A stretch of DNA of 64,000 nucleotides from Escherichia coli (GTDB lineage: Bacteria; Pseudomonadota; Gammaproteobacteria; Enterobacterales; Enterobacteriaceae): assembly GCF_003790525.1 (NCBI RefSeq), contig NZ_CP033635.1. The stretch is one strand, 5' to 3'. Positions 3,087 through 53,300 of the stretch are shown here, piece after piece (the stretch's first letter is position 1; every line of letters begins with the position of its first letter). The notes beneath the pieces are model-generated. The model was not told the DNA's origin, did no database searches, and worked only from the letters and a program-made list of their open reading frames with translations. Made by a program: the position numbers and the translations under genes.

Positions 3087-3467
3087 ATGCAAAAACTAGC
3101 CTTTTTCCGCGATGCTCCCGCCCCGTGGCAGGGCACCCCACAAGGAGGACCCGCCATCACTATGGAGGACATGACCATGACCATGACCGAGACCGAAGCG
3201 ATCGGGATAATCCGCAGTATTACCGGAATCAGCCAGCAGGCTGGCGAACAGGAGGCCACGCAGCCGGACAGCGTGATAGCCGAAAATTACGCGTGTGTTG
3301 TTGCTGAGGTGATGCGCCGTGATGGTATTGAGCTTAACGGCGTGGATATGCGCAACATACGAACCAGAGTCCTTGAGTTGCTGGCATACCGTCGCCGTTC
3401 TCAACAACGGAGGGAGAGCGCGAAAAACACTTATCAGTGGAAGAAGCCGGAACGGTTGCGGCGGTAG
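3087..3467 (+). CDS. Hypothetical protein; start uncertain (possibly near 3162)
   Basis: ORF track; several in-frame ATGs with SD-like sequences. Confidence 0.3.
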   Translation: MQKLAFFRDAPAPWQGTPQGGPAITMEDMTMTMTETEAIGIIRSITGISQQAGEQEATQPDSVIAENYACVVAEVMRRDGIELNGVDMRNIRTRVLELLAYRRRSQQRRESAKNTYQWKKPERLRR

Positions 3468-4488
3468 ATTCCTGATATTCAGGAAAACCACGAATCCGGG
3501 GGTTTTACTGGCGCGGTGTACACGGTGGAACGCATAGCGTTACCTGACTTATTGCATTGTAAAAAGTTAGAAAGGCACGGCCTGTAAGATGGGATGTTGT
3601 GAGTAGTTTAAAGCTACCCGCAAATTCTTTCGTTGTGCTGGCACAGGCGGTTAAACCGTCGGTAACTGGATAATCCCCACTGGGGGAAAAGCTGGCTACA
3701 TCCCTCACATCTGAGGACTGATAATGCGACATTGCGCTGGCTGGTGGGTGAGTTGCAGATTTGCAACTCGACCATGAAACTACGGAAACTACCCGTAGTT
3801 TGGGTAGTAAGAGTAACACCCAGATTTTGGGGCTTACTCGCGATACCCAAATAAAGGGTATCGGTGGAAGAAATATCGTTTCTCATATGTAAGTACCGAG
3901 GGCGGAATTCCGCCTTCGGTTACTTATTGTGCTCATTCACAGGGAGGGGCGGGTCAAATCTCTGTACCCTGACGTCTTCAGGACTGCCCGCCCCATCGAT
4001 TTTTTATACCCGCGAAAAATGAAAAACGCTTCACGCTGGTGGGCCTGATGCCGATATGGGGAGCCGCATACCGGAGAATATCCACCAGCACGGCAACAGC
4101 AGAATAGCCCCGACACAGAAAAACCACGAATATGGGGTTTTTGTTATGGCATGGTCATGATGACCGCCCCTGCTCTGAATGGTGGAAATCACCACGCAGA
4201 TCATCCACCAGCTTCATGACGGATAGCCGGAAAATGATAATGATTAAAGCGTGTTGATCTTTGTTCGCGGTTGTTCGATATTGTTCGTGAAGCGGTGTAG
4301 TTAATGGTGTAGTTAATATCACTGTTTTTGACGGGCTTGTTATTTGCAACATAATGAAAAATAAAGACTAATTAACTAAATGATATAAGATAGTTATCTA
4401 TCATGTGGAGTAGATTGGTCAGGCAAATAAGCTCTTGTCAGCGGCAGGGCGTTCTGCCGATAACCGTAACCGAAGATGATAACTGACA

Positions 4489-4809
4489 ATGGGTAAAACG
4501 AACGACTGGCTGGACTTTGATCAACTGGCGGAAGAAAAAGTTCGCGACGCGCTAAAACCGCCATCTATGTATAAAGTGATATTAGTCAATGATGATTACA
4601 CTCCGATGGAGTTTGTTATTGACGTGTTACAAAAATTCTTTTCTTATGATGTAGAACGTGCAACGCAATTGATGCTCGCTGTTCACTACCAGGGGAAGGC
4701 CATTTGCGGAGTCTTTACCGCCGAGGTTGCAGAAACCAAAGTGGCGATGGTGAACAAGTACGCGAGGGAGAATGAGCATCCATTGCTGTGTACGCTAGAA
4801 AAAGCCTGA
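4489..4809 (+). CDS. clpS: ATP-dependent Clp protease adaptor ClpS
   Basis: 106-aa translation matches ClpS. Confidence 0.95.
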
Positions 4810-4839
4810 ATGCAGGCATAAAAATTGGGGGAGGTGCCT

Positions 4840-7116
4840 ATGCTCAATCAAGAACTGGAACTCAGTTTAAATATGGCTTTCGCCAGAGCGCGCGAGCACC
4901 GTCATGAGTTTATGACCGTCGAGCACTTGTTACTGGCGCTGCTCAGTAACCCATCTGCCCGGGAGGCGCTGGAAGCGTGTTCTGTGGATTTGGTTGCGCT
5001 CCGTCAGGAACTGGAAGCCTTTATTGAACAAACCACACCCGTTCTGCCTGCCAGTGAAGAGGAGCGCGACACACAGCCGACGCTGAGTTTTCAGCGTGTA
5101 CTGCAACGTGCGGTCTTCCATGTCCAGTCCTCCGGTCGCAATGAGGTTACCGGTGCAAACGTTCTGGTCGCTATTTTTAGCGAACAGGAGTCGCAGGCGG
5201 CATATCTGTTGCGTAAACATGAAGTCAGCCGTCTCGATGTGGTGAACTTTATCTCTCATGGCACGCGTAAAGACGAGCCGACACAGTCTTCTGATCCTGG
5301 CAGCCAGCCAAACAGCGAAGAACAAGCTGGTGGGGAGGAACGTATGGAGAATTTCACGACGAACCTGAATCAGCTTGCGCGAGTGGGCGGAATCGACCCA
5401 CTGATTGGTCGTGAGAAGGAGCTGGAGCGTGCTATTCAGGTTCTCTGCCGTCGCCGTAAAAACAACCCGCTGCTGGTGGGGGAATCTGGTGTCGGTAAAA
5501 CCGCGATTGCGGAAGGTCTTGCCTGGCGAATTGTTCAGGGCGATGTGCCGGAAGTGATGGCTGACTGTACGATTTACTCTCTCGATATCGGTTCTCTGTT
5601 AGCGGGCACTAAATATCGCGGCGACTTTGAAAAACGTTTTAAAGCGTTGCTCAAGCAGCTGGAGCAGGACACTAACAGCATCCTGTTTATTGATGAGATC
5701 CACACCATTATCGGTGCGGGTGCAGCGTCTGGTGGTCAGGTCGATGCGGCTAACCTGATCAAACCGTTGCTCTCCAGCGGTAAAATTCGCGTAATTGGTT
5801 CGACAACCTATCAGGAGTTCAGCAACATTTTCGAGAAAGACCGTGCTCTGGCGCGTCGCTTCCAGAAAATTGATATTACTGAACCGTCGATCGAAGAAAC
5901 TGTTCAAATCATCAATGGCCTGAAACCGAAGTACGAAGCGCACCATGACGTGCGTTATACCGCAAAAGCGGTGCGTGCAGCGGTAGAGCTGGCGGTGAAA
6001 TACATTAACGATCGTCATCTGCCGGATAAAGCCATTGACGTTATCGACGAAGCGGGCGCTCGCGCACGCCTGATGCCGGTAAGCAAACGCAAGAAAACCG
6101 TTAATGTGGCGGATATTGAGTCTGTGGTGGCCCGTATTGCGCGCATTCCAGAGAAGAGTGTTTCGCAGAGTGACCGCGATACCCTGAAAAACCTCGGCGA
6201 TCGCCTGAAAATGCTGGTCTTCGGTCAGGATAAAGCCATTGAGGCGCTGACTGAAGCCATTAAGATGGCGCGTGCAGGTTTAGGTCACGAACATAAACCG
6301 GTCGGTTCGTTCCTGTTTGCCGGTCCTACCGGGGTCGGGAAAACAGAGGTGACGGTACAGCTTTCGAAAGCTTTGGGCATTGAGCTTCTGCGCTTTGATA
6401 TGTCCGAGTATATGGAACGCCATACCGTCAGCCGTCTGATTGGTGCGCCTCCGGGATACGTTGGTTTTGATCAGGGGGGGCTGCTGACCGATGCGGTCAT
6501 CAAGCATCCGCACGCGGTACTGCTGCTGGACGAAATCGAGAAAGCGCATCCGGACGTGTTCAATATTCTGTTGCAGGTGATGGACAACGGTACGCTGACC
6601 GATAACAACGGACGCAAAGCGGACTTCCGTAACGTGGTATTGGTGATGACCACCAACGCTGGGGTACGAGAAACTGAGCGTAAATCGATTGGTCTTATCC
6701 ATCAGGACAACAGCACCGATGCGATGGAAGAGATCAAGAAGATCTTTACGCCGGAGTTTCGTAACCGTCTCGACAACATTATCTGGTTCGATCATCTCTC
6801 CACCGACGTGATCCATCAGGTAGTGGATAAATTCATCGTCGAGTTGCAGGTTCAGCTGGATCAGAAAGGTGTTTCTCTGGAAGTGAGCCAGGAAGCGCGT
6901 AACTGGCTGGCCGAGAAAGGTTACGACCGGGCAATGGGCGCACGTCCGATGGCGCGTGTCATCCAGGACAACCTGAAAAAACCGCTCGCCAACGAACTGT
7001 TGTTTGGTTCGCTGGTGGACGGCGGTCAGGTGACGGTTGCGCTGGATAAAGAGAAAAATGAGCTGACTTACGGATTCCAGAGTGCACAAAAGCACAAGGC
7101 GGAAGCAGCGCATTAA
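4840..7116 (+). CDS. clpA: ATP-dependent Clp protease ATP-binding subunit ClpA
   Basis: Two AAA+ modules with Walker A GESGVGKT and GPTGVGKT; start [10 protein letters not shown] inside the track ORF. Confidence 0.95.
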
Positions 7117-8243: not shown

Positions 8244-8948
8244 TCATTCTTGTGGTGAAAACAAGCACCGTGGTACCCAGAAATTATTCGGCAATCGTCC
8301 GAGGCGCATTTGATTGAGATAATTTAGATAATCCCGGCGGGGAATTTCGCAGGCACCAAGCGAAGCTGTGTGATCGTTAAGGACCTGGCAGTCGATAAGC
8401 TTACCGCCATGACCAATAAATTCCTCACAGAATACCAGAAGCGCCGTTTTAGACGCATTTTCCATCCGGCTGAACATGGACTCGCCACAAAATAGCGTTC
8501 CCTGGGCCACGCCGTACATACCGCCGACAAGCTCATCTTCACGCCAGACTTCAATAGAGTGGGCATGACCGAGTTCGTGAAGGCGATGGTAGGCTTCGAC
8601 CACGCCACGCGTGATCCAGGTTCCTTCTTCGCGATCGCTGGCACAGCCTTCAATGACCTGACCAAAAGCGTAATTCATCGTGACTCGATAGGGCGAGCGT
8701 TTATGAAATCGCTTCATACTACGGCTGATATGCAGTGATTCTGGCCATAGCACCGCGCGGGGATCGGGCGACCACCAGAGGATGGGGTCGCCTGGAGAAA
8801 ACCACGGAAAAATACCACGCTGGTAAGCCATTAACAGGCGCGCAGGGCTAAGATCGCCCCCCAGTGCCAGCAGGCCGTTAGGCTCACGTAATGCGCCTTC
8901 CGGGGAAGGGAAGGCTATTGAATGGCGAGAAAGCTGAACCAGGCGCAT
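8244..8948 (-). CDS. aat: Leucyl/phenylalanyl-tRNA-protein transferase
   Basis: 234-aa translation; conserved position between infA and cydC. Confidence 0.9.
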
Positions 8949-8989: not shown

Positions 8990-10711
8990 TTACAAACCCT
9001 GCTTAAACTGGTAATAACGCCCCTGTCGGGCAAGCAGTTCTGCGTGAGTACCTTGCTCAATAATTTGCCCGTTGTCCATCACTATTATTTGCTGGAAACG
9101 AGAGAGCCCGCGAAGTCGATGGGTGACCATTAACACCGTTTTCTCACGCATCATTTCTGCAAGTAATTCAAGGATCTGACTTTCAGTTGTGGCATCTAAG
9201 CCTTCGGTAGGTTCATCCAGCAATACCAGTGGCGCATCATGTAACAGCGCACGGGCGATAGCCAGACGGCGCAGTTCACCACCGGAGAGCTGGCGTCCGC
9301 CTTCACCCAACCAACTGTTGAGACCTGCATCCTCGAGCAGCTTCTCCAGACCAACGCGACGCAAGATCTCCGCCAGAGCCTCATCACTACTATCAGGCGA
9401 GGCGAGTAACAGATTATCACGCAGCGTGGCGCTAAACAGATGCACTCGCTGTGGCACAACGCTGATGGTCTGTCGTAGAGTCGCTTCATTCAGGCTGGCT
9501 ATGGGGCTATCGTTAAGCAAAATCTCGCCCTGTTGCGGGTCCCATGCGCGGGTCAGCAGTTGTAACAATGTTGATTTGCCGCATCCGGTTCGCCCGAGAA
9601 TCGCTATATGTTCTCCGGCGTTTACCTGAAGAGAAATCCCTTTAAGTGCCTGTTGGGATTGCTCTGGATAAGTGAACTGAACATCCCGTAATGTCAGCGA
9701 AACACGATCGGCAACACGAGTTTGGGTATCAGGGAAGGTGACTTCCGGTTTTTGATCCGTTAAGTCAGTGATCCGTACGGCAGAGGCAATGACTTGCCCC
9801 AGATGCTGAAATGCACCCGTTACTGGTGCCAGTGCTTCAAACGCGGCTAACGCGCAGAAGACAAACAGGGCAATTAACGCGCCGGGTTGAGCATTGCCGC
9901 CAACGCCGCCAGACGCCATCCACAGCATCAGGATCACCGCTAACGCGCCAATGAGCAGCATTATCGCTTGCGACAATGCGGTGAGTTCAGATTGACGACG
10001 TTGCGATTCCAGCCACTGAATTTCGGTATTCTCTAACTGCGTGCGATAACGATCGCTGGCACCAAAAATGGTCAGCTCAGCTTGCCCTTGCAGCCAGGCC
10101 GTCAGTTGTTGGCGATACTGCCCGCGAAGATGAGTCAGATTTTGCCCGGTGCTTTTTCCCGCACGATAAAACAGTGGTGGCATAAGGAAAAGCGTCAGTA
10201 ACATAATGCCGCCCAGCGTAAAGGCGAGGGTGAAATCAAGGAAACTTAACCCGATTGTCACCACCATAATCACCACAAAAGCGCCCACCAGCGGCGAGAT
10301 AACGCGCAGGTAAAGATGATCGAGCGTATCAACATCCGCCACCACGCGGTTGAGCAATTCGCCCTGACGATAGCGCGCCAGTCCGGCAGGGGAGAGGGGC
10401 AGCAATTTGCTGAAGGTATAAATGCGCAGATGCTGCAACACGCGGAAAGTCGCGTCGTGACTTACCAGGCGTTCAAAATAGCGCCCGGCAGTACGGGTGA
10501 TTGCTGCGCCACGCACGCCCGCAGCGGGTAGCATATAGTTGAAGCTGTACAGTCCGGCAACCCCCGCAACCGCTGAGGCGGAGAGGAACCAGCCCGAAAG
10601 TGTCAACAGACCGATGCTGGCGAGCAGCGTGACAATTGCCAGCACAATACCAAGACTTAACATCCATTTATGACGTTTATACAGTGCCAGATAGGGTAGC
10701 AAAGCGCGCAT
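8990..10711 (-). CDS. cydC: Cysteine/glutathione ABC exporter subunit CydC
   Basis: N-terminal 6-TM domain plus C-terminal ABC ATPase (GRTGCGKST, LSGGE). Confidence 0.9.
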   Translation of the reverse strand: MRALLPYLALYKRHKWMLSLGIVLAIVTLLASIGLLTLSGWFLSASAVAGVAGLYSFNYMLPAAGVRGAAITRTAGRYFERLVSHDATFRVLQHLRIYTFSKLLPLSPAGLARYRQGELLNRVVADVDTLDHLYLRVISPLVGAFVVIMVVTIGLSFLDFTLAFTLGGIMLLTLFLMPPLFYRAGKSTGQNLTHLRGQYRQQLTAWLQGQAELTIFGASDRYRTQLENTEIQWLESQRRQSELTALSQAIMLLIGALAVILMLWMASGGVGGNAQPGALIALFVFCALAAFEALAPVTGAFQHLGQVIASAVRITDLTDQKPEVTFPDTQTRVADRVSLTLRDVQFTYPEQSQQALKGISLQVNAGEHIAILGRTGCGKSTLLQLLTRAWDPQQGEILLNDSPIASLNEATLRQTISVVPQRVHLFSATLRDNLLLASPDSSDEALAEILRRVGLEKLLEDAGLNSWLGEGGRQLSGGELRRLAIARALLHDAPLVLLDEPTEGLDATTESQILELLAEMMREKTVLMVTHRLRGLSRFQQIIVMDNGQIIEQGTHAELLARQGRYYQFKQGL

Positions 10712-42430: not shown

Positions 42431-43207
42431 TTAACCACGTTTCGCCTTCGCTTTCGCCTTCGGCGTCGTGGTCTGTTCTCTGGTTGTATCTTTCTGTGCC
42501 GCAGGCTCCTGTGCGGCAGCGGCTTCATCCTGTCCGGCCTTTTTCAGGGCCCGTGAAAGCGTGGCAATCTCACGTTTTACCCCCGCATTCGGGTTAAGGT
42601 GCATTGCCTCACGGAACAGCTTCAGACTCACCGCCATGCTGTCGGCATCGGTCAGGCCACGACGGGCAAAGGCGCATGCCTTGCACAGCTTGGCGCGGAC
42701 CTCATCGGGCATGTCCCGGTTCGCGACAATTTGCCAGAGGGTGTCCAGCGGTTCGATGTAGCCGGACAAATCGGCGTGTGCATCCGTTCCGGCCTGTGTC
42801 AGAACAGGGTTGCAGATTTCCTCGGTCAGTACCGTGGCTGCCGTACGCCCGAAGTTGTCAGGCATCGTGAGGTTGTGGCGAACCACATAATCCCCGATGC
42901 GCAGTGCAAGCGCCAGGTCGCCACAGTCCACGGCCCACACCATGAGTGTGGCTATCACCTCATCCTGCTGTCCGCCGTCGGCTTCCAGCGTGCCGTCTAT
43001 CCAGCCTGCAAAACCCGGCAGCATTTCACGCTTGAGCGCGGCCTTTGCCGCTTTTGCCTGGACGCCCTTTATGCGTTGCTGTGCCAGGCGCAGACGGTGA
43101 AGGACCTGCTCATGAGCCGTGCGGGCCACGATATCCTCGTTTTCTGCTGCCGTTCCTGCCCGTAAAGCCATCACGTGCTGGAAATGAGCCTGTGCCGGTG
43201 TCAGCAT
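42431..43207 (-). CDS. M: Terminase small/endonuclease subunit (P2 M-like)
   Basis: 258 aa; position between capsid gene and L. Confidence 0.75.
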   Translation of the reverse strand: MLTPAQAHFQHVMALRAGTAAENEDIVARTAHEQVLHRLRLAQQRIKGVQAKAAKAALKREMLPGFAGWIDGTLEADGGQQDEVIATLMVWAVDCGDLALALRIGDYVVRHNLTMPDNFGRTAATVLTEEICNPVLTQAGTDAHADLSGYIEPLDTLWQIVANRDMPDEVRAKLCKACAFARRGLTDADSMAVSLKLFREAMHLNPNAGVKREIATLSRALKKAGQDEAAAAQEPAAQKDTTREQTTTPKAKAKAKRG

Positions 43208-45368: not shown

Positions 45369-47120
45369 ATGATTCAGGATACATTTGTTCGCCAGCGGGC
45401 ACGCCAGCTGTACTGGCAGGGTTACCCTGTTGCGGAAATTTCCCGCCTTATGGGTATCAACCAGAACACGATCCATTCGTGGAAAAAACGCGACCAGTGG
45501 GATGAGACGCCCCCGGTTCAGCGTGTCACGCAGTCCATGGATGCGCGACTCATTCAGCTCACGGAAAAACAGAATAAAACAGGCGGGGACTTTAAGGAAA
45601 TTGATTTGCTGACCCGTCAGCTTAAAAAGCTGCATGACGGTCTGCCGGATGAGACGGCAACAGGAAAGAAAGGCCGGGCGAAAAAACACAAAAATCATTT
45701 CACGCCGGAACAGATCGCGGCGCTGCGGGAAAAAATTACCGACAGGCTGGCCGGACACCAGCGCAAATGGCTTGATGCTATCGGTGCCTGTGAGCGTGCC
45801 GGAATTACTGACAGGATGATCCTGAAATCCCGCCAGATTGGGGCGACCTGGTATTTTGCGCAGGAAGCGCTGCTGATGGCGCTGCGTGACGATGTGGCAC
45901 AACCTTACCAGCGTAACCAGATTTTTTTGTCTGCGTCTCGTCGTCAGGCGCTCCAGTTTAAAAGCATTATTCAGAAGGCTGCATCTGAAGTTGATGTGGA
46001 ACTGAAAGGGGGCGATAAAGTCATCCTCTCCAACGGTGCAGAGCTGCATTTTCTCGGCACTTCTGCGGCCACCGCGCAAGCGTACACAGGGAATCTGTAT
46101 TTTGATGAGTTTTTCTGGACGGGGCGTTTCGCAGAGCTGCGCAAGGTGGCTGCTGCTATGGCAACGCTGGATGGTTTGCGGTGTACCTATTTTTCCACGC
46201 CATCAAGTGAAACACATGAGGCGTATGCATACTGGAACGGCGATCACTGGAATGAAGGGCTTCGTACTCATAAACGTCAGCATTTTGATGTGAGCTGGAA
46301 TGCGCTTCATAACGGCCTTATCTGTCCTGACTATATCTGGCGGCAAATTGTGACGCTGGAAGATGTGGTCAGTCAGGGATGGACGTTAACCAACATTGAC
46401 AAAATCCGGCGCAATAACACTGAAGACGAGTTCCGCAATCTCTACATGTGTGAATTTGCTCGCGAAGGGGAATCGGCATTTAACCTGAATATCCTGATTG
46501 GCTGCGGTGTTGACGGATACGACGAGTGGCCGGACTGGAAGCCGTTTGCACCGCGTCCGATGGGGAACCGCCCTGTGTGGATTGGGTACGACGCCAACGG
46601 CAGTAGCGGGAACGGTGACAGCGGGGCGGTTGTCGTGGTGGTGCCGCCAGCCGTACCGGGCGGGCGTTTTCGCACCGTGGAGACGCGGCGGGTGCAGGGG
46701 CTGGAGTTTGAGGCGCAGGCGAAGGTGATTGAAGAGTTCACCTTTCGCTATAACGTTGAGCATATCGGTATTGACGTAACCGGCGGTCACGGGGATGCGG
46801 TGTATCAGATTGTGAAGCGCTTTTTTCCGGCAGCCATTCCCTACACCTTCACCCTGTCATCAAAGCGCACGCTGGTTCTGAAGATGCTGCAGCTCATGCG
46901 CGCCGGGCGGTGGGAGTACGACCGCAGCGAGCGCGAACTGGTGAGCGCCTTTAACGCGGTACGCAAAACAAAAACGCAGGCCGGATTTATCACCTACGAA
47001 ACAGATCGCGCAAGAGGCGTAAGCCATGGCGATCTTGCATGGGCCACCATGCTGGCCGTTATCAACGAACCTGTCGGCGGTGAACATGATGCCGCCCCCT
47101 TCAGTGTTACGGAGTTCTGA
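45369..47120 (+). CDS. P: Terminase large (ATPase) subunit (P2 P-like)
   Basis: 583 aa; position. Confidence 0.9.
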   Translation: MIQDTFVRQRARQLYWQGYPVAEISRLMGINQNTIHSWKKRDQWDETPPVQRVTQSMDARLIQLTEKQNKTGGDFKEIDLLTRQLKKLHDGLPDETATGKKGRAKKHKNHFTPEQIAALREKITDRLAGHQRKWLDAIGACERAGITDRMILKSRQIGATWYFAQEALLMALRDDVAQPYQRNQIFLSASRRQALQFKSIIQKAASEVDVELKGGDKVILSNGAELHFLGTSAATAQAYTGNLYFDEFFWTGRFAELRKVAAAMATLDGLRCTYFSTPSSETHEAYAYWNGDHWNEGLRTHKRQHFDVSWNALHNGLICPDYIWRQIVTLEDVVSQGWTLTNIDKIRRNNTEDEFRNLYMCEFAREGESAFNLNILIGCGVDGYDEWPDWKPFAPRPMGNRPVWIGYDANGSSGNGDSGAVVVVVPPAVPGGRFRTVETRRVQGLEFEAQAKVIEEFTFRYNVEHIGIDVTGGHGDAVYQIVKRFFPAAIPYTFTLSSKRTLVLKMLQLMRAGRWEYDRSERELVSAFNAVRKTKTQAGFITYETDRARGVSHGDLAWATMLAVINEPVGGEHDAAPFSVTEF

Positions 47121-48175
47121 TGAGCAGAAAAAATAAACAACGACGTACGAACGCCCGCGCAGCGCAGGGCAGCCTTGCGGATTCCCTGCGAAGCGACCCG
47201 ACACTGAGTGCCTTCACGTTTGAAGGACCTTACCGGCTGTCAGGGGCCGACCTGCTGGACAGCATGTACTGCGCCGACAACGGGCGGTGGTTTGAAACGC
47301 CCGTTGACTGGTACGGACTGGCACGGGCTGCCCGCCAGACGTCCTGGCACCAGTCGGCGCTCAGCTTCAAACGTAATGTGCTGCTGGGCTGCTATATTCC
47401 ACATCCTCTGCTGTCCCGCCAGGAGTTCGCCGGGGTGGCGATGGACTGGTTTGTGTTCGGTAATGCCTGTCTTGAGCTGCGGCGCAACATGCTTGGCGAA
47501 CCGCTGGCCCTGCGCCGGGCGCTGGCGAAATACATGCGACGTGGCAGCGATATGAAATCATGGTGGTATATACAGGAAGGACAGGAAGAGTACCGCTTTC
47601 GTGAGGGGACGATATGCCACCTGATGAATCCTGATATCAACCAGGAGATTTACGGGATGCCGGATTACCTGGGCGGCCTGCTGTCTGCCAGCCTGTCACA
47701 TTCCGCCGATATCTTCCGCAAGCTCTACTACGATAACGGCTCACACGCGGGCTGTATTGTCTACATCGGTGCGGCGCAGGTTGACCGTGAAAGCATGGAA
47801 AAACTGCGGGAAACACTGCAAAGCGCGCGTGGTGGCGGGGCGTTTAAAAATCTGCTCATCCACGCGGCGGGAGGTGGTAAGGATGGCGTACAGATTTTGC
47901 CGTTTCAGCAAATCACCGCAAAGGATGAGTTCATGAACGTCAAGGCTGCATCGCGTGATGATGTGCTGTCCGTGCACCGTGTACCGCCGCAGCTGATGGG
48001 GGCCATGCCGGGTGAGAAGGGGTCATTCGGGGATGTGGAGAAGGCAGCCCGTGTGTTTGCCATTAACGAACTGATGCCCGTCATGGAAGCAATGAAACAC
48101 GTCAACGACTGGCTGGGCGAAGAGGTGATCCGTTTTAACCCTTACGCACTGTTAGACACCCAGCCCATATCCTGA
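47120..48175 (+). CDS. Q: Portal protein (P2 Q-like)
   Basis: 351 aa; position after P. Confidence 0.9.
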   Translation: MSRKNKQRRTNARAAQGSLADSLRSDPTLSAFTFEGPYRLSGADLLDSMYCADNGRWFETPVDWYGLARAARQTSWHQSALSFKRNVLLGCYIPHPLLSRQEFAGVAMDWFVFGNACLELRRNMLGEPLALRRALAKYMRRGSDMKSWWYIQEGQEEYRFREGTICHLMNPDINQEIYGMPDYLGGLLSASLSHSADIFRKLYYDNGSHAGCIVYIGAAQVDRESMEKLRETLQSARGGGAFKNLLIHAAGGGKDGVQILPFQQITAKDEFMNVKAASRDDVLSVHRVPPQLMGAMPGEKGSFGDVEKAARVFAINELMPVMEAMKHVNDWLGEEVIRFNPYALLDTQPIS

Positions 48176-48241: not shown

Positions 48242-48955
48242 TTAACGAAGTGCTGATGGCGCTCGCTTTTTCAGGTGATTAGCGATGTGCTTTTTCATGT
48301 GCATAACAACATCGCCCCAGGCTTCTTCGCTGGGTTTATTGATAAATACGCGAACAGAAATATCGTCTTCCACCCGGACTCTCAGAGACACCCGTTCCGC
48401 ATCTACTGAATATAATTCAAGTGCAATAACCACGCTTACCGGGTAGCTGCTGTCAGATGACTTAACCCAGGTTCGCACGGCCATGCGGAAAATATTGTCT
48501 GGTGCAGATGCGATATTGTGGACTGAAAGAGGACTAAAATCCGCCGCTGTCTTACATGGCAAGCCTGTCTCCACGTAGCGGTGCAGGTCGCCATCATCGT
48601 CTTCCCAGTACATGGATGGAAGCCCCAGCCATTCTTCATAGAAATCAATCAGCCTTGCCGCTTCATCCCGCAAAATTTGAGCTGCCTCAGCGCGTTTTTC
48701 TTCAGCTTCACGATTGATCTGGCATAAATCATTAAAGTGGCTCATGACATTATCCTCTTTTGAGTTGATGCCTGCCGCTATTCTGACTTTGCCCGGGTTC
48801 TCCTGCAAGCTGGTTATTCCTTCAGATAATTTCACAACATCTCCAACCTTGTAGCCATCATCGCCGGGCGGATGCTTACGCAACCCCGCAACTCTGACGA
48901 CATATTCTCGCTGCCTCAGTGCGATTTTGACGGCCTTATCTTTCACCCCCATCAA
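48242..48955 (-). CDS. Uncharacterised cargo protein at the P2 tin/old position (237 aa, or 167 aa from an internal start at about 48745)
   Basis: Own transcription unit; internal ATG has SD AAGAGGATAA; no motif recognised. Confidence 0.5.
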   Translation of the reverse strand: MMGVKDKAVKIALRQREYVVRVAGLRKHPPGDDGYKVGDVVKLSEGITSLQENPGKVRIAAGINSKEDNVMSHFNDLCQINREAEEKRAEAAQILRDEAARLIDFYEEWLGLPSMYWEDDDGDLHRYVETGLPCKTAADFSPLSVHNIASAPDNIFRMAVRTWVKSSDSSYPVSVVIALELYSVDAERVSLRVRVEDDISVRVFINKPSEEAWGDVVMHMKKHIANHLKKRAPSALR

Positions 48956-49235
48956 ATCAAGCTTTTACGTCTTTTTTACGCTCAGCGTGAGAAATACAGC
49001 CATTCTGTTGTGTCGCTGCAACATCGTTCAGGGAATGCTATTTACCCCCTGAAACGCGGGCTGTTCCCCCGTCACCTGCGCGCAGAAAAAGGCCTTTTTT
49101 CGTGCACGCACGGATCCCCGACGGATCCAGACGCCACACGGGCCGGAAGGGCAAAAAGTCGTTCAAAAAAATTGTGCAAATTTGTGCACTATTGTGCATT
49201 GAAATAAACGCCCTGGAGGAGGGCGTTTTGCTCAT

Positions 49236-49637
49236 CTATTTATAGCCTTGCCCCTTACTGGCCAGCGCCCTGATGGCAGGGCGTGCCAACACCATATTTT
49301 GGCAATGATGAATTGCCCGGCAAAATTCATCTCTACCCATTGGATGCTCAACTGGCAATGTAAAATACAGGTTCCATGCATCGCCTAAAAGTTGGGCTAT
49401 CTTTTGTTCTTCAGATGTCAGCAAGCGGTACTCCCCATCCTTGATGTAGTCACTTGTGCCATCGACCTGCTGTTCTGCAATGTGGAAAGCACCTATTGGT
49501 TTTGCTTCCAGCGATGCCAAAGCAATCCGTGCCAGTTTTTCCGCTTCTTCGGCTGGCAGTACAACGTTGCTACCAGGTCCGTATGTTTCGCGCCACTGCC
49601 TGATTGTCAGTAGTCGCTCTTTGGTTATAGTGGTCAT
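49236..49637 (-). CDS. Hypothetical protein (133 aa), last gene of the operon downstream of A
   Basis: ORF track; start overlaps upstream ORF; followed by a terminator at about 49210-49232. Confidence 0.45.
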   Translation of the reverse strand: MTTITKERLLTIRQWRETYGPGSNVVLPAEEAEKLARIALASLEAKPIGAFHIAEQQVDGTSDYIKDGEYRLLTSEEQKIAQLLGDAWNLYFTLPVEHPMGRDEFCRAIHHCQNMVLARPAIRALASKGQGYK

Positions 49638-50365: not shown

Positions 50366-50793
50366 TGTTGTTTCCTCCCGTTCTGTGCTGGTCTGGCGAA
50401 TGAATTGCGTTGTGGTGAAAAGACCATTCGCGCCAGCGCGGCCTTGTGATTGACTGTGTTCAGTGTTCTGGCCAGTCCGCCGTTGTGCCTGCGTGTCCGC
50501 TCTTCGTGATATCTCTGCATGATTTTCCCGGCAGGCGTGCACGGCTCCGGTTCCTCCGGCGAACGGCGCGGACGAATGACGACAGTCCAGCTATGGCTCT
50601 CGCTGCCCGGCCGCCTGTTGAGTATGTCGGCGATGGTGGTCTCCGTGGTGCGATCGGGGCTGACTATCGTGATTTCCAGCTCGTCGCCCGGTTGTGGCCT
50701 TGTGGCAGGCCTGAACAGTGTCAGCACCGGCATACGCTGGCGCATGATGGCCTCAAACTGTGGGCGCTGCATGGTGCAGCAAAATCGCGTCAT
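50362..50793 (-). CDS. Hypothetical protein (143 aa), translationally coupled to A
   Basis: Start overlaps the A stop. Confidence 0.45.
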   Translation of the reverse strand: MTRFCCTMQRPQFEAIMRQRMPVLTLFRPATRPQPGDELEITIVSPDRTTETTIADILNRRPGSESHSWTVVIRPRRSPEEPEPCTPAGKIMQRYHEERTRRHNGGLARTLNTVNHKAALARMVFSPQRNSFARPAQNGRKQQ

Positions 50794-53300
50794 GCTCCCG
50801 CCTCCACTGGCTGCTCTGTGATGATGTGACGGGCTGACTCATCCCAGTACGCTGTTCCCCCGTTATCCAGACGCACACGGGCACCGTTACGCACGGAGAT
50901 GATGGCCGCGTCAGGCAACTGCACACCCAGCGCATCAAGTTCGCGGGCGATTTGCGTGTCCGTCGCGGTATCCGCAGGCACGACAATCCCCACCCTTACA
51001 GGGGTGTCAGATGCCGGTGTGGTGTCGTTTTGTCCGGTTTTTGCGCCCGACGGCTGATTTTTAATCTGATTACGCAGTTTTCTCCGATCGCCCCTGCTTA
51101 ACGTATTCAGCCAGCTTTCCAGGTTCTCTTCGGGAAGCGTCAGTCGTCCGGGGTCCTGCCTGTTTTCTGGTCCGTGATTGTCTGTTTTTTCATCCCGGGG
51201 ACAGTTATTGCCACGAGTCCAAGGGGCGACGGGGTCGCCCTGAAGGTCAAAACCCTCGCCCGTGCGGTTGTCTGGTATTGTTTCTTTTTTAACCAGTTTC
51301 CACTCGTCCGGATGGGTGCATATGGTGTACCGCTCTCCGAGCGACGGGGCGCAGATTCCGTAGATACGTTGAGGGAATTCACCGTAGTCGTTGGCTTCGT
51401 CTGCGGTTTCGTATGCGGTGCGGACCAGATACTGGTTGCGCGGAATGAGCACACCACCCTGTTTCATGATGTAGGTGGCAAAACATCCCACATCTGCGGC
51501 AGCCATAATGGCGTCAATATCGTCATGATCGAGGTGCTTCGGTGATGCCGGGTTGCGCTCCATCTGGCTTGCAAGGCGGCGGAGTTCACGCCATACCTGG
51601 CGGGGCGGAATGCCGAAAAACTGGAACTGACGGATGCGGTGAAGGCTTGCCCAGGCAATGGCGTTCTCCACGGTTTCCGCCATGGTTTTCCCGGATTCCT
51701 CATCAACGTAAGGTTTTCCGGTTTTCGGATCATTGTTGTGGAAAGCGCTGGCGTCCAGGTTCTTACCGATATAGGTTGCGATATAGCTTGCCGGTGTGCC
51801 TTTTTCCGGGTCTATCTTCTCGCATTTAAAGCGCGGTGAAATATCGTCCCCCAGTTCGTGGCGATCTGATTTAATTGCTGCTTCGCGCATAATTTCGATG
51901 ATGCGCTCTGCGTTCTCCGGGGAAGTGAATACCAGCATATGCCAGTGTGGCGTGCCGTCATGGTGTGGCTCAGCGGTTCGCACGCCGTACCAGCCCAGCC
52001 CCTCTTTTTTTATTTTTTTTCTTACGGCTGCGAAGAAGTCGTAAACCAGATAATCACTGGCATCTCGTACTGTGGCACCGTTGTATTTCGGGTTCAGGCT
52101 GCCGTTCTCGTTCACGCTGTGAAAGCGGGAAGGGGTGGTTACTGTGATGAAGAATGCGACGTCAGCCCGTAATTCGGCCACCATCTCCATCCCTCTGACG
52201 CAGACCATCATTTCATTGCGGCGGTTGCGTGGATTACCCAGGCCAGCCCAGTACACGTCCTCCAGACTCAGGCGCTCGCCGTCTTCGTTTTCAATATCCC
52301 AGCTTTTGAGAAAGTCACAGGTGCGCTGGCGCTTCTCGCGGAACTCCAGTAGTGACTCATGGCTGATATAGGGGGATTGTTTACGTGACACTCTGCCGGC
52401 GGCGCGCAGTAACTCCTCCCGCCAGAGATCGGCGACGTGGCGTAACTGGTTGTTCCACCAGGTCGCGCAGGTGATGCGCAGTACCGCACCCGGAACCCGT
52501 TCAGGGTCCGGCGGTGTGCGTCGGTTGTGCCTGATTTCGAGTTCCGGCCAGTATGGCGGGACCATGCCCAGAATTAAGGCTGTGCGTGCCACCTTCTGGT
52601 AGGCCAGCAGCCAGATAACCGGGCTGTCATTATCCTTGCCTGTCCGTTCAAGAACTTCATCACATATGCGTTCAAATTCTGCGGCGAATGCCTGGGCTGT
52701 CAGTGTGGCGATGCGCTGGATTTCGTCACGGGTGAGTTGCGGCAGTGTGAGCAGTTCTTCAAGGCGATGGCGCACGACGGTGGTTTTGAATGCCGGCGTT
52801 GCAAAGCGGTCGTTAACCCTTTCAATACGTTTCAGGCGCGCACGCAGTCCACGGCGAACGAAATTATCGGCCACGTATGCGCTGTTGTTTTTTACACCTT
52901 CACTGCGGGCACTTTGCTGTTTCCGGTTCAGTCGTGCCAGATCACGGATCAACACACTGGCAAGAAACGAGGGCAGGGTGCGAAGTTCGGCTATCGCCTC
53001 CGATACCGCCGTTGGCGGATTTTCGCGTCTGTGTCGTGCCAGCTTATCCAGCCTTATCTGCCGCTCTTCGTCCCGGTGAAGGTGTGAATTAATTTGCTTA
53101 CCTTTGTCCGTGGTTGTCAGGAAGGCCACGGTTTCTTCATCCAGCCGGGCCTCAGTGCGAATGTCTTCGGTGAGGTAGTCACGGATTGCCCGTTGTAATG
53201 CGGTTGGCTTCTGCGGTAATGCTCTGCCGAATGTCTCAGGATCAATAACCGGCAGCGGGGCGTTCCACGGGTACGCCAGGTGCGTGTGGTGATGGCTCAT
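50790..53300 (-). CDS. A: Replication initiation protein (P2 A-like)
   Basis: 836 aa; position downstream of the regulatory genes. Confidence 0.85.
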   Translation of the reverse strand: MSHHHTHLAYPWNAPLPVIDPETFGRALPQKPTALQRAIRDYLTEDIRTEARLDEETVAFLTTTDKGKQINSHLHRDEERQIRLDKLARHRRENPPTAVSEAIAELRTLPSFLASVLIRDLARLNRKQQSARSEGVKNNSAYVADNFVRRGLRARLKRIERVNDRFATPAFKTTVVRHRLEELLTLPQLTRDEIQRIATLTAQAFAAEFERICDEVLERTGKDNDSPVIWLLAYQKVARTALILGMVPPYWPELEIRHNRRTPPDPERVPGAVLRITCATWWNNQLRHVADLWREELLRAAGRVSRKQSPYISHESLLEFREKRQRTCDFLKSWDIENEDGERLSLEDVYWAGLGNPRNRRNEMMVCVRGMEMVAELRADVAFFITVTTPSRFHSVNENGSLNPKYNGATVRDASDYLVYDFFAAVRKKIKKEGLGWYGVRTAEPHHDGTPHWHMLVFTSPENAERIIEIMREAAIKSDRHELGDDISPRFKCEKIDPEKGTPASYIATYIGKNLDASAFHNNDPKTGKPYVDEESGKTMAETVENAIAWASLHRIRQFQFFGIPPRQVWRELRRLASQMERNPASPKHLDHDDIDAIMAAADVGCFATYIMKQGGVLIPRNQYLVRTAYETADEANDYGEFPQRIYGICAPSLGERYTICTHPDEWKLVKKETIPDNRTGEGFDLQGDPVAPWTRGNNCPRDEKTDNHGPENRQDPGRLTLPEENLESWLNTLSRGDRRKLRNQIKNQPSGAKTGQNDTTPASDTPVRVGIVVPADTATDTQIARELDALGVQLPDAAIISVRNGARVRLDNGGTAYWDESARHIITEQPVEAGA

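Follow-up and report, generated by a model that had tools for sequence, protein, structure and literature searches.

Phased TTGTGCA repeats at the edge of a conserved non-coding block as the probable distal part of a P88-like cos site

A phased heptamer array in a P88-type prophage

The window analysed here is a 64,000-nucleotide stretch of the Escherichia coli contig NZ_CP033635.1 (assembly GCF_003790525.1). It contains a prophage of the P2 family, P88 type (Peduoviridae, Xuanwuvirus-like), in which the layout of the large terminase, portal and replication endonuclease genes is common to P88 and P2, and in which capsid and scaffold genes are also found. The non-coding interval 48960–49240 is 87–94% identical to P88 and its relatives and 75% identical to an Enterobacter phage of a different genus. 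Within it lies a non-coding block of approximately 165 bp (49034–49198), flanked by the portal gene on one side and by replication-side accessory genes on the other. The final conserved bases of this block are an array of three TTGTGCA heptamers. The genes of the locus and the elements of the block, together with the evidence on which each was assigned, are as follows.

45369–47120, plus strand: large terminase, gpP-like (PF06056 at 1.3e-26; Terminase_6N and Terminase_6C)
47120–48175, plus strand: portal protein, gpQ-like, marking the left side of the cos region
48242–48955, minus strand: cargo ORF in the portal-to-cos hotspot, matching phrog_5091 (unknown function) over residues 70–236
49034–49057: left edge of the conserved, predicted cos block (ATTTACCCCCTGAAACGC); homology to the satellite L014 starts at 49034 and a CCCCC island is conserved
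49058–49076: predicted cosN, with the 19-nt cohesive-end sequence GGGCTGTTCCCCCGTCACC (reverse complement GGTGACGGGGGAACAGCCC), placed by homology with boundaries good to about ± 2 nt
49077–49098: TGCGCGC box and, after it, a short dyad (AAAAAGG/CCTTTTT) that runs into a T-run, assigned from the inverted repeat and its conservation
49099–49107, plus strand: proximal site TTCGTGCAC, preceded by the T-run at 49095–49100; GTGCA is invariant in 51–52 of 52 representatives
49108–49164: proximal-to-distal spacer of low information content, weakly conserved in sequence and near-constant in length
49165–49171, plus strand: A7 tract just before the first heptamer, with A at each position in 43–51 of 52 representatives
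49172–49198, plus strand: distal array of three TTGTGCA copies, the last conserved element of the block and near-invariant in 52 representatives
49206–49228, minus strand: Rho-independent terminator of the leftward accessory/early genes (9-bp perfect stem, assigned by fold), the first element of the variable region
50790–53300, minus strand: replication endonuclease of 836 aa, gpA-type, on the replication side of the prophage

The initial annotation had described three TTGTGCA direct repeats at 10-bp spacing, and this description was confirmed. The copies occupy 49172–49178, 49182–49188 and 49192–49198 on the plus strand, a spacing of one helical turn. Counting both strands, TTGTGCA occurs nine times in the window, compared with the 15.8 occurrences expected from shuffled sequences, and three of the nine copies reside in the array. 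Only two heptamers in the whole window occur three times at exact 10-bp spacing, and no phased heptamer triple arose in 300 simulated 64-kb sequences generated with a first-order Markov model. A fourth, imperfect copy of the motif had been overlooked. This copy, TTCGTGCAC at 49099–49107, is situated 72–73 bp to the left of the triple, with its TGCA core 72 bp before the first distal TGCA core, and it is present as a perfect TTGTGCAC in most relatives. The spacer between the proximal and distal sites holds ACGGATCC twice, at 49110–49117 and 49121–49128. The terminator reported beside the repeats also proved to be real: a perfect 9-bp inverted repeat (49206–49214 and 49220–49228) directly follows the stop codon of a minus-strand ORF (49236–49637) and dominates the RNA fold of that strand.

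The other phased triple in the window consists of TTGTTCG at 4261, 4271 and 4281, again at 10-bp spacing, in an array region spanning 4261–4319 in which GGTGTAGTTAAT occurs twice after the triple. It is located between a lambda-Nu1-like ORF (2341–2925) and ClpS/ClpA-like ORFs (4489–4809 and 4825–7116), and could comprise binding sites, of the arm type or another, that border a different mobile element.

Correspondence with the cos regions of P2, 186 and P4

The block occupies the location at which cos is found in P2: it is non-coding, follows the portal gene (Q), and separates the packaging genes from the accessory region on the replication side. We compared its sequence with the annotated cohesive ends of the P2 group. 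In the same orientation, GGTGACGGGGGAACAGCCC is identical to the P2 cohesive end GGCGAGGCGGGGAAAGCAC at 13 of 19 positions, and intermediate forms of cosN, for example CTTGCTCCCCCGCCTCGCC, were observed in the related loci L023, L039 and L042. The predicted cosN (49058–49076) is also the highest island of conservation among relatives.

The order of elements flanking this sequence is likewise that of the known sites. When P2 and 186 are read in the orientation of the window, GCGCGCA is followed by the 19-nt cos, a GC dyad, a T-run and ATGCA, the left side of P4 being GCGCGCG. In the window, GGGCTGTTCCCCCGTCACC is followed by TGCGCGC, the short dyad, the T-run and CGTGCAC. The interval 49077–49098 corresponds to the GC-rich dyad and T-run on the right of cosN in P2, 186 and P4, and the TGCA beyond it stands at +27 in the window and at +26 in the other three.

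We then counted the offset of every TGCA from the right cos boundary. The cos annotations were taken from the P2 and 186 records, whilst the cosN of the window was placed by homology, with cut positions predicted to within about ± 2 nt. The TGCA offsets obtained, with the basis on which the cos boundary was set, were:

P2: 26, 98, 108, 120 (annotated cos ends)
186: 26, 32, 98, 108, 117/121 (annotated cos ends)
P4: 26, 32, 72, 98, 108, 121 (annotated cos ends)
Window: 27, 99, 109, 119 (cosN predicted by 13/19 identity to P2)
Klebsiella Gegavirus phage ST15-OXA48phi14.1: 26, 32, 98, 108, 121 (cos taken as the best 19-mer match, 15/19)
Yersinia phage: 28, 34, 100, 110, 119/123 (cos taken as the best 19-mer match, 12/19)
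L042, a locus whose portal is 44% identical: 26, 98, 108, 118 (counted by hand)

The distance from the proximal TGCA to the distal TGCA is a constant 72 bp in P2, 186, P4 and the window; the sequence lying between these sites is unalignable between P2 and P4. These matching offsets identify the triple of the window as the positional counterpart of the ATGCA triple in the P2, 186 and P4 cos regions. The shared architecture covers enterobacterial lineages and, in part, one Aeromonas lineage. In the GC-rich P2-like phages of Burkholderia, Ralstonia and Stenotrophomonas, cos was not located by simple 19-mer scoring.

Two further records bear features of note in this region. The Aeromonas phage vB_AsaM_LPM4 (L214) possesses a cos-like site, ATCGTTACCCCGCCACGCC, at positions of approximately 3160–3200, downstream of its portal gene, with a proximal TGCA at +26; at the distal position, GATCC(TT) occurs three times, at +92, +104 and +123, in place of the TGCA repeats. 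In the virion-derived assembly of P88_4B11 (L002, 1588–1605), five nucleotides are deleted and a T is replaced by C exactly at the left boundary of the predicted cosN (AAAC-CTGTCCCCCCGTCACC compared with AAACGCGGGCTGTTCCCCCGTCACC); this could reflect either faulty assembly at the true DNA ends or genuine variation in cos. The ends of the linear P88_4B11 record, which correspond to 49153/49154 of the window, were considered as physical cos ends and dropped, the first base having been chosen by the authors: nucleotide 1 was set relative to reference genomes after SPAdes assembly (PMC6969025).

Conservation in related prophages and satellites

A pattern scan of IMG/VR retrieved at least 120 stretches with the triple, a set that was mostly selected for the motif itself. 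To obtain an unbiased sample, 80 loci were anchored only on the portal protein (57–100% identity), of which 79 were usable. A triple was present downstream of the portal gene in all 79 (score of at least 15 out of 21) and scored at least 18 in 70 of them. The best control triple, drawn from both strands of the approximately 6 kb upstream of each locus, scored 14. The initial annotation had proposed a search of related prophages and had held that loss of the motif there would speak against its proposal; what we observed is the opposite, with the motif strongly kept. Common variants exchange TGCA for TGCG with the register preserved, as in a middle repeat reading TTGTGCG.

An alignment of 52 non-redundant relatives resolved the limits of this conservation. 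The heptamers are near-invariant, whilst their spacers and flanks vary, and the conserved islands comprise 49058–49084, the T-run with GTGCA at 49096–49106, and the A-run with the heptamers at 49165–49198. Conservation then falls to zero at 49199. The sequence to the left of the triple is conserved and that immediately to its right is unrelated between lineages, a difference also seen in the number of flank clusters among relatives (50 on the right as against 17 on the left). This unrelated right-side sequence marks the known cos-adjacent cargo hotspot. The divergent locus L042 is alignable to the window only over the A-tract and the triple.

Within the species, a 158-bp portion of the block (49041–49198) was recovered from 1101 of the 5426 complete E. 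coli genomes, giving 1246 occurrences and a maximum of four in any one genome; strain SCU-115 matches it at 100%. None of the 12 matches listed had an annotated feature under the block. Taken on sequence comparison, the pattern of motif conservation points to packaging and away from gene regulation.

Satellites provided a separate view of the array. P4 has only cos in common with P2 (PMC9122126), and it keeps a TGCA triple of the P2/186 type. Three elements of approximately 12 kb from IMG/VR (L014, L049 and L116) carry the P88-type cos block, including the triple. L014 (12006 bp), in which the block lies at 8615–8790 on the minus strand, encodes a P4-type integrase, an 897-aa Toprim primase, a second integrase-like gene, a PemK toxin and a P2-family major capsid protein with an N-terminal extension; neither a portal nor a terminase was found on this contig. 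Its alignment to the window is confined to 49034–49198, at 88.8% identity, and ends at the last base of the third heptamer. Sharing of the site with satellites, as is known for cos, is thus seen both in the L014 block and in the equivalent triple of P4.

A second type of satellite is represented by L043 (928–13613), with the triple at 10635–10661 and a proximal site also present. Its genes include a P4-type integrase, a Toprim primase, a truncated GPO scaffold, a P2-family capsid protein, HicB and a ProQ/FinO-like protein, as well as a PF05944 small terminase of its own that is 27% identical to that of the window. Portal and large terminase genes were not found at this locus, and the only piece alignable to the window is the A-tract with the triple. 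Beside the triple, L043 bears proximal motifs of both the P2 type (AAATGCACC) and the P88 type (TTTTTTGTGCAC).

In carrying a cos block of the helper type inclusive of the triple, L014, L049, L116 and L043 resemble known cos mimics (P4; cos-type SaPIs and PICIs). They depart from the classical P4 gene set by joining a P4-type integrase and primase to P2-family capsid genes, and L043 departs further in having a scaffold gene and a small terminase of its own. Elements that must rely on a helper for packaging have thus retained the array, and among comparative arguments for its membership of the packaging signal this is the strongest.

Candidate reader, alternative explanations and known systems

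We consider it likely that the three TTGTGCA repeats constitute the distal part of the cos (packaging) site of this P88-like, P2-family prophage. The best reading, by analogy, is that they would act as distal terminase-assembly sites comparable to cosB. In the working model, the three phased sites and the proximal site, 72 bp apart and all on one helical face, would allow several terminase protomers to dock on the same face of the DNA and would nucleate a terminase oligomer over cosN. The spacer of approximately 72 bp would be bent or looped and the nuclease of the large subunit would be assembled over cosN, where a staggered cut would generate the cohesive ends and start or finish packaging. 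Satellites that parasitise P88-type phages would have to copy the array in order to be packaged. As packaging would constrain the block as far as 49198, cargo genes could be swapped freely only beyond that position.

Two candidate DNA-binding components of the terminase are encoded in the window:

45384–45557, plus strand: N-terminal helix-turn-helix domain of the large terminase (PF06056, residues 6–63), with HTH_23, HTH_28 and Sigma70_r4_2 matches
42431–43207, minus strand: small terminase, gpM-like (PF05944 at 4.4e-37), 36% identical to P2 gpM

Judging from these domain assignments, the probable reader of the heptamers is one of the two terminase subunits, either the large one through its helix-turn-helix domain (PF06056) or the small one (PF05944), and we slightly favour the large subunit. 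The structural model of the small terminase (pLDDT 85) is a TPR-like, all-alpha helical solenoid with a basic, Lys/Arg-rich disordered tail, in which no helix-turn-helix and no recognisable DNA-binding fold was seen. Comparison with the solved small terminases in the PDB yielded no informative match (best E 0.02). A reader supplied by the helper, the large subunit, is mildly favoured because L043 keeps the array despite the very different small terminase that it encodes. The window, P2, the Klebsiella phage and most of the TGCA-bearing relatives compared share the SWK(K/Q)RD core of the helix-turn-helix domain; two outlying relatives have SWRRRD and AWKQRD. The residues preceding this core are NT(I/L)(Y/H) in phages of the TTGTGCA type and (P/A)TV(Q/H) in P2 and the Klebsiella phage. 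This variation of helix-turn-helix residues with motif type is suggestive, with phylogeny confounding the covariation. Divergence of the small terminase was tried as a correlate of motif type and rejected, identity being 36% to P2 gpM (different motif) and 27% to the L043 protein (same motif).

More tentatively, the same arrangement may extend across the P2 family, from P2, 186 and P4 to the P88-like phages and the new satellites, with a proximal site at about +26 and three phased distal sites at about +98, +108 and +120 read by the helix-turn-helix of the large terminase. The TGCA core would then be ancient, and its flanks (TTGTGCA, CATGCA, or the GATCCTT that replaces them in the Aeromonas phage) could form a packaging-specificity code that decides the matching of satellite to helper. 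This wider scheme is possible, and we advance it with reserve.

The repeats had initially been placed upstream of the ORF at 48242–48955 and interpreted as a binding-site array for a regulator. The geometry stands, since the repeats lie on the 5' side of this minus-strand cargo gene, and a phased array of protein-binding sites does fit the data; direct repeats phased by one helical turn are moreover found in many operator arrays. It is as an operator through which a transcription regulator controls the cargo gene that the proposal fails. The triple is 217 bp from the TTG start codon and 424 bp from an ATG at 48748, close to where the PHROG match begins (residue 70), and the conserved cosN block with its predicted cleavage site intervenes. 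The cargo ORF is absent from P88 and from most of the relatives that keep an identical triple, the distance from portal to triple being approximately 430 bp in most loci compared with approximately 1000 bp in the window. Furthermore, the triple recurs in satellites with unrelated neighbours, and almost every lineage has different sequence on its other side. No regulator gene is conserved in linkage with it, and sigma-70-like promoters were not found in or around the repeats. With the triple invariant whether or not the cargo ORF is present, we give the operator almost no credence, and on these comparisons the ORF does not appear to be functionally tied to the repeats. Function as iterons is similarly not borne out, the same heptamers accompanying both the gpA-type replication endonuclease and the unrelated Toprim primases of the satellites.

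Other explanations leave the array within or beside cos and assign it a different role. In lambda cosB, the IHF site I1 aids terminase indirectly, and the present repeats might similarly be read by a host nucleoid protein or act mainly as intrinsically bent DNA. The A7, AAATTT and TATT tracts do recur every 10 bp, the motif stays constant in relatives whose small terminase and portal have fallen to 27% and 44% identity, respectively, and all hosts examined are Enterobacteriaceae save for the Aeromonas lineage with its different distal motif. However, the invariant bases are those of GTGCA and not the A/T tracts, and by eye the IHF consensus WATCAANNNNTTR is not matched at the right spacing, TTCAAAAAAATTG being one base out of register with it. 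The use of CATGCA by P2, 186 and P4 in the same host also argues for a phage-encoded reader, and we regard indirect action of this kind as unlikely. As identities for the motif, an Ogr/Delta-type TGT-N12-ACA, a DnaA box and the IHF consensus were each tried by eye and rejected for want of fit.

A back-up terminator or insulator that stops leftward read-through of the accessory operon across cos is very improbable in our view. On the minus strand GUGCA and UGCAC can pair ahead of AAUUUUUUUG, many relatives have a terminator adjoining the triple, and in P4, on our reading of the sequence, two of the three TGCA cores form the arms of a hairpin that precedes a T-run, immediately beyond the end of psu; the positional TGCA pattern of P4 could in part serve transcription termination. 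Nevertheless, the array does not have the properties of a Rho-independent terminator. Its stem measures just 5 bp, and pairing is lost in common variants (for example TTGTGCG in the middle repeat) that retain the heptamer register. The fold energy is indistinguishable from that of shuffled sequence (z -1.2 and -1.0), and no Rfam family is matched. The strong terminator at 49228–49206 already precedes the array on the minus strand, and P2 has three direct ATGCA repeats that lack hairpin potential. We find equally improbable a role for the array in promoting cargo-cassette exchange, whether as a recombination site or as a boundary element. The homology does break exactly after the third repeat (49198/49199), with 50 right-flank clusters following, and a cos-adjacent hotspot is documented (PMC9122126). 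Yet no recombinase accompanies the array, any essential cis element would be expected to end in an equally sharp break, and nothing requires such a role. Nor would it account for the proximal copy or for the constant interval to cosN, and satellites retain the array together with cosN.

Considered as terminase-recognition repeats of a cos site, the array is of modest novelty, being an undescribed sub-structure of a known type of site. For P2 and P4, 19-nt cohesive ends and a 55-bp conserved cos core have been described (Ziermann & Calendar 1990, as cited in PMC5694545 and PMC9122126). In the literature searched, in which the 1990 core paper is represented through its citations, the 55-bp core is mentioned at most, and we found neither the P88-type cos nor the distal phased triple described, nor any mention that the triple keeps a fixed position in P2, 186, P4 and the P88-like phages. 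The site in the window is like cos of P2, 186 and P4 in being downstream of portal gene Q and beside a variable cargo region, in sharing its block with satellites, and in its sequence of a homologous cosN (13/19), dyad, T-run, TGCA at +26/+27 and further sites at approximately +98, +108 and +120. It differs in the heptamer (TTGTGCA as opposed to (C/A)ATGCA), in the spacing of the repeats (10/10 bp as opposed to 10/12–13 bp), in 6 of the 19 cosN bases of P2, and in that the distal triple lies outside the 55-bp core described for P2 and P4.

A further comparison is offered by lambda cosB, where the gpNu1-binding sites R3, R2 and R1 and the IHF site I1 lie next to cosN, and where a winged helix-turn-helix is carried by the small subunit. 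In both systems a short site is repeated on a single side of the position that is nicked, here as one proximal and three distal copies. By analogy, these sites may assemble terminase and confer packaging specificity, with bending of the DNA between them probably needed. The two have no sequence similarity, however; approximately 72 bp separate the proximal and distal sites in the phage of the window, its recognisable helix-turn-helix is on the large subunit, and its small subunit models as TPR-like.

The region adjacent to cos is a cargo and defence hotspot (PMC9122126), and in a 186-like prophage retrons have been reported to be inserted between cos and a terminator (Dodd & Egan 1996, as cited in PMC5694545). 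The window shows the same locus, with a variable region that starts at 49199 with the terminator, and with a second slot between portal and cos. Studies of the hotspot have described its variable genes, whereas the repeats are its constant edge and give the cos-side boundary to the base. Annotation of the block as a cos site ending at the third heptamer would supply a base-precise marker of that edge, and the hotspot beside it is mined for new anti-phage systems. Should the array be needed for packaging, P88-helper cosmids and P2/P4-based transducing particles would require approximately 125 bp on this side of cosN, beyond the 55-bp core. The motif type (TTGTGCA or CATGCA) could additionally predict which satellites are mobilised by a given P2-like helper. 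A testable idea that follows is that, in the P2-like family, the packaging site is read by the large terminase's own helix-turn-helix domain and not by the small subunit.

The cargo gene in the second slot shows a composite organisation. The N-terminal 60–70 codons of the ORF at 48242–48955 resemble a small P88 ORF, gp22 (L001, 2851–2979), and the rest gives the phrog_5091 match. The long ORF may therefore be a fusion, or else a 168-aa gene with its start at ATG 48748 that was called too long.
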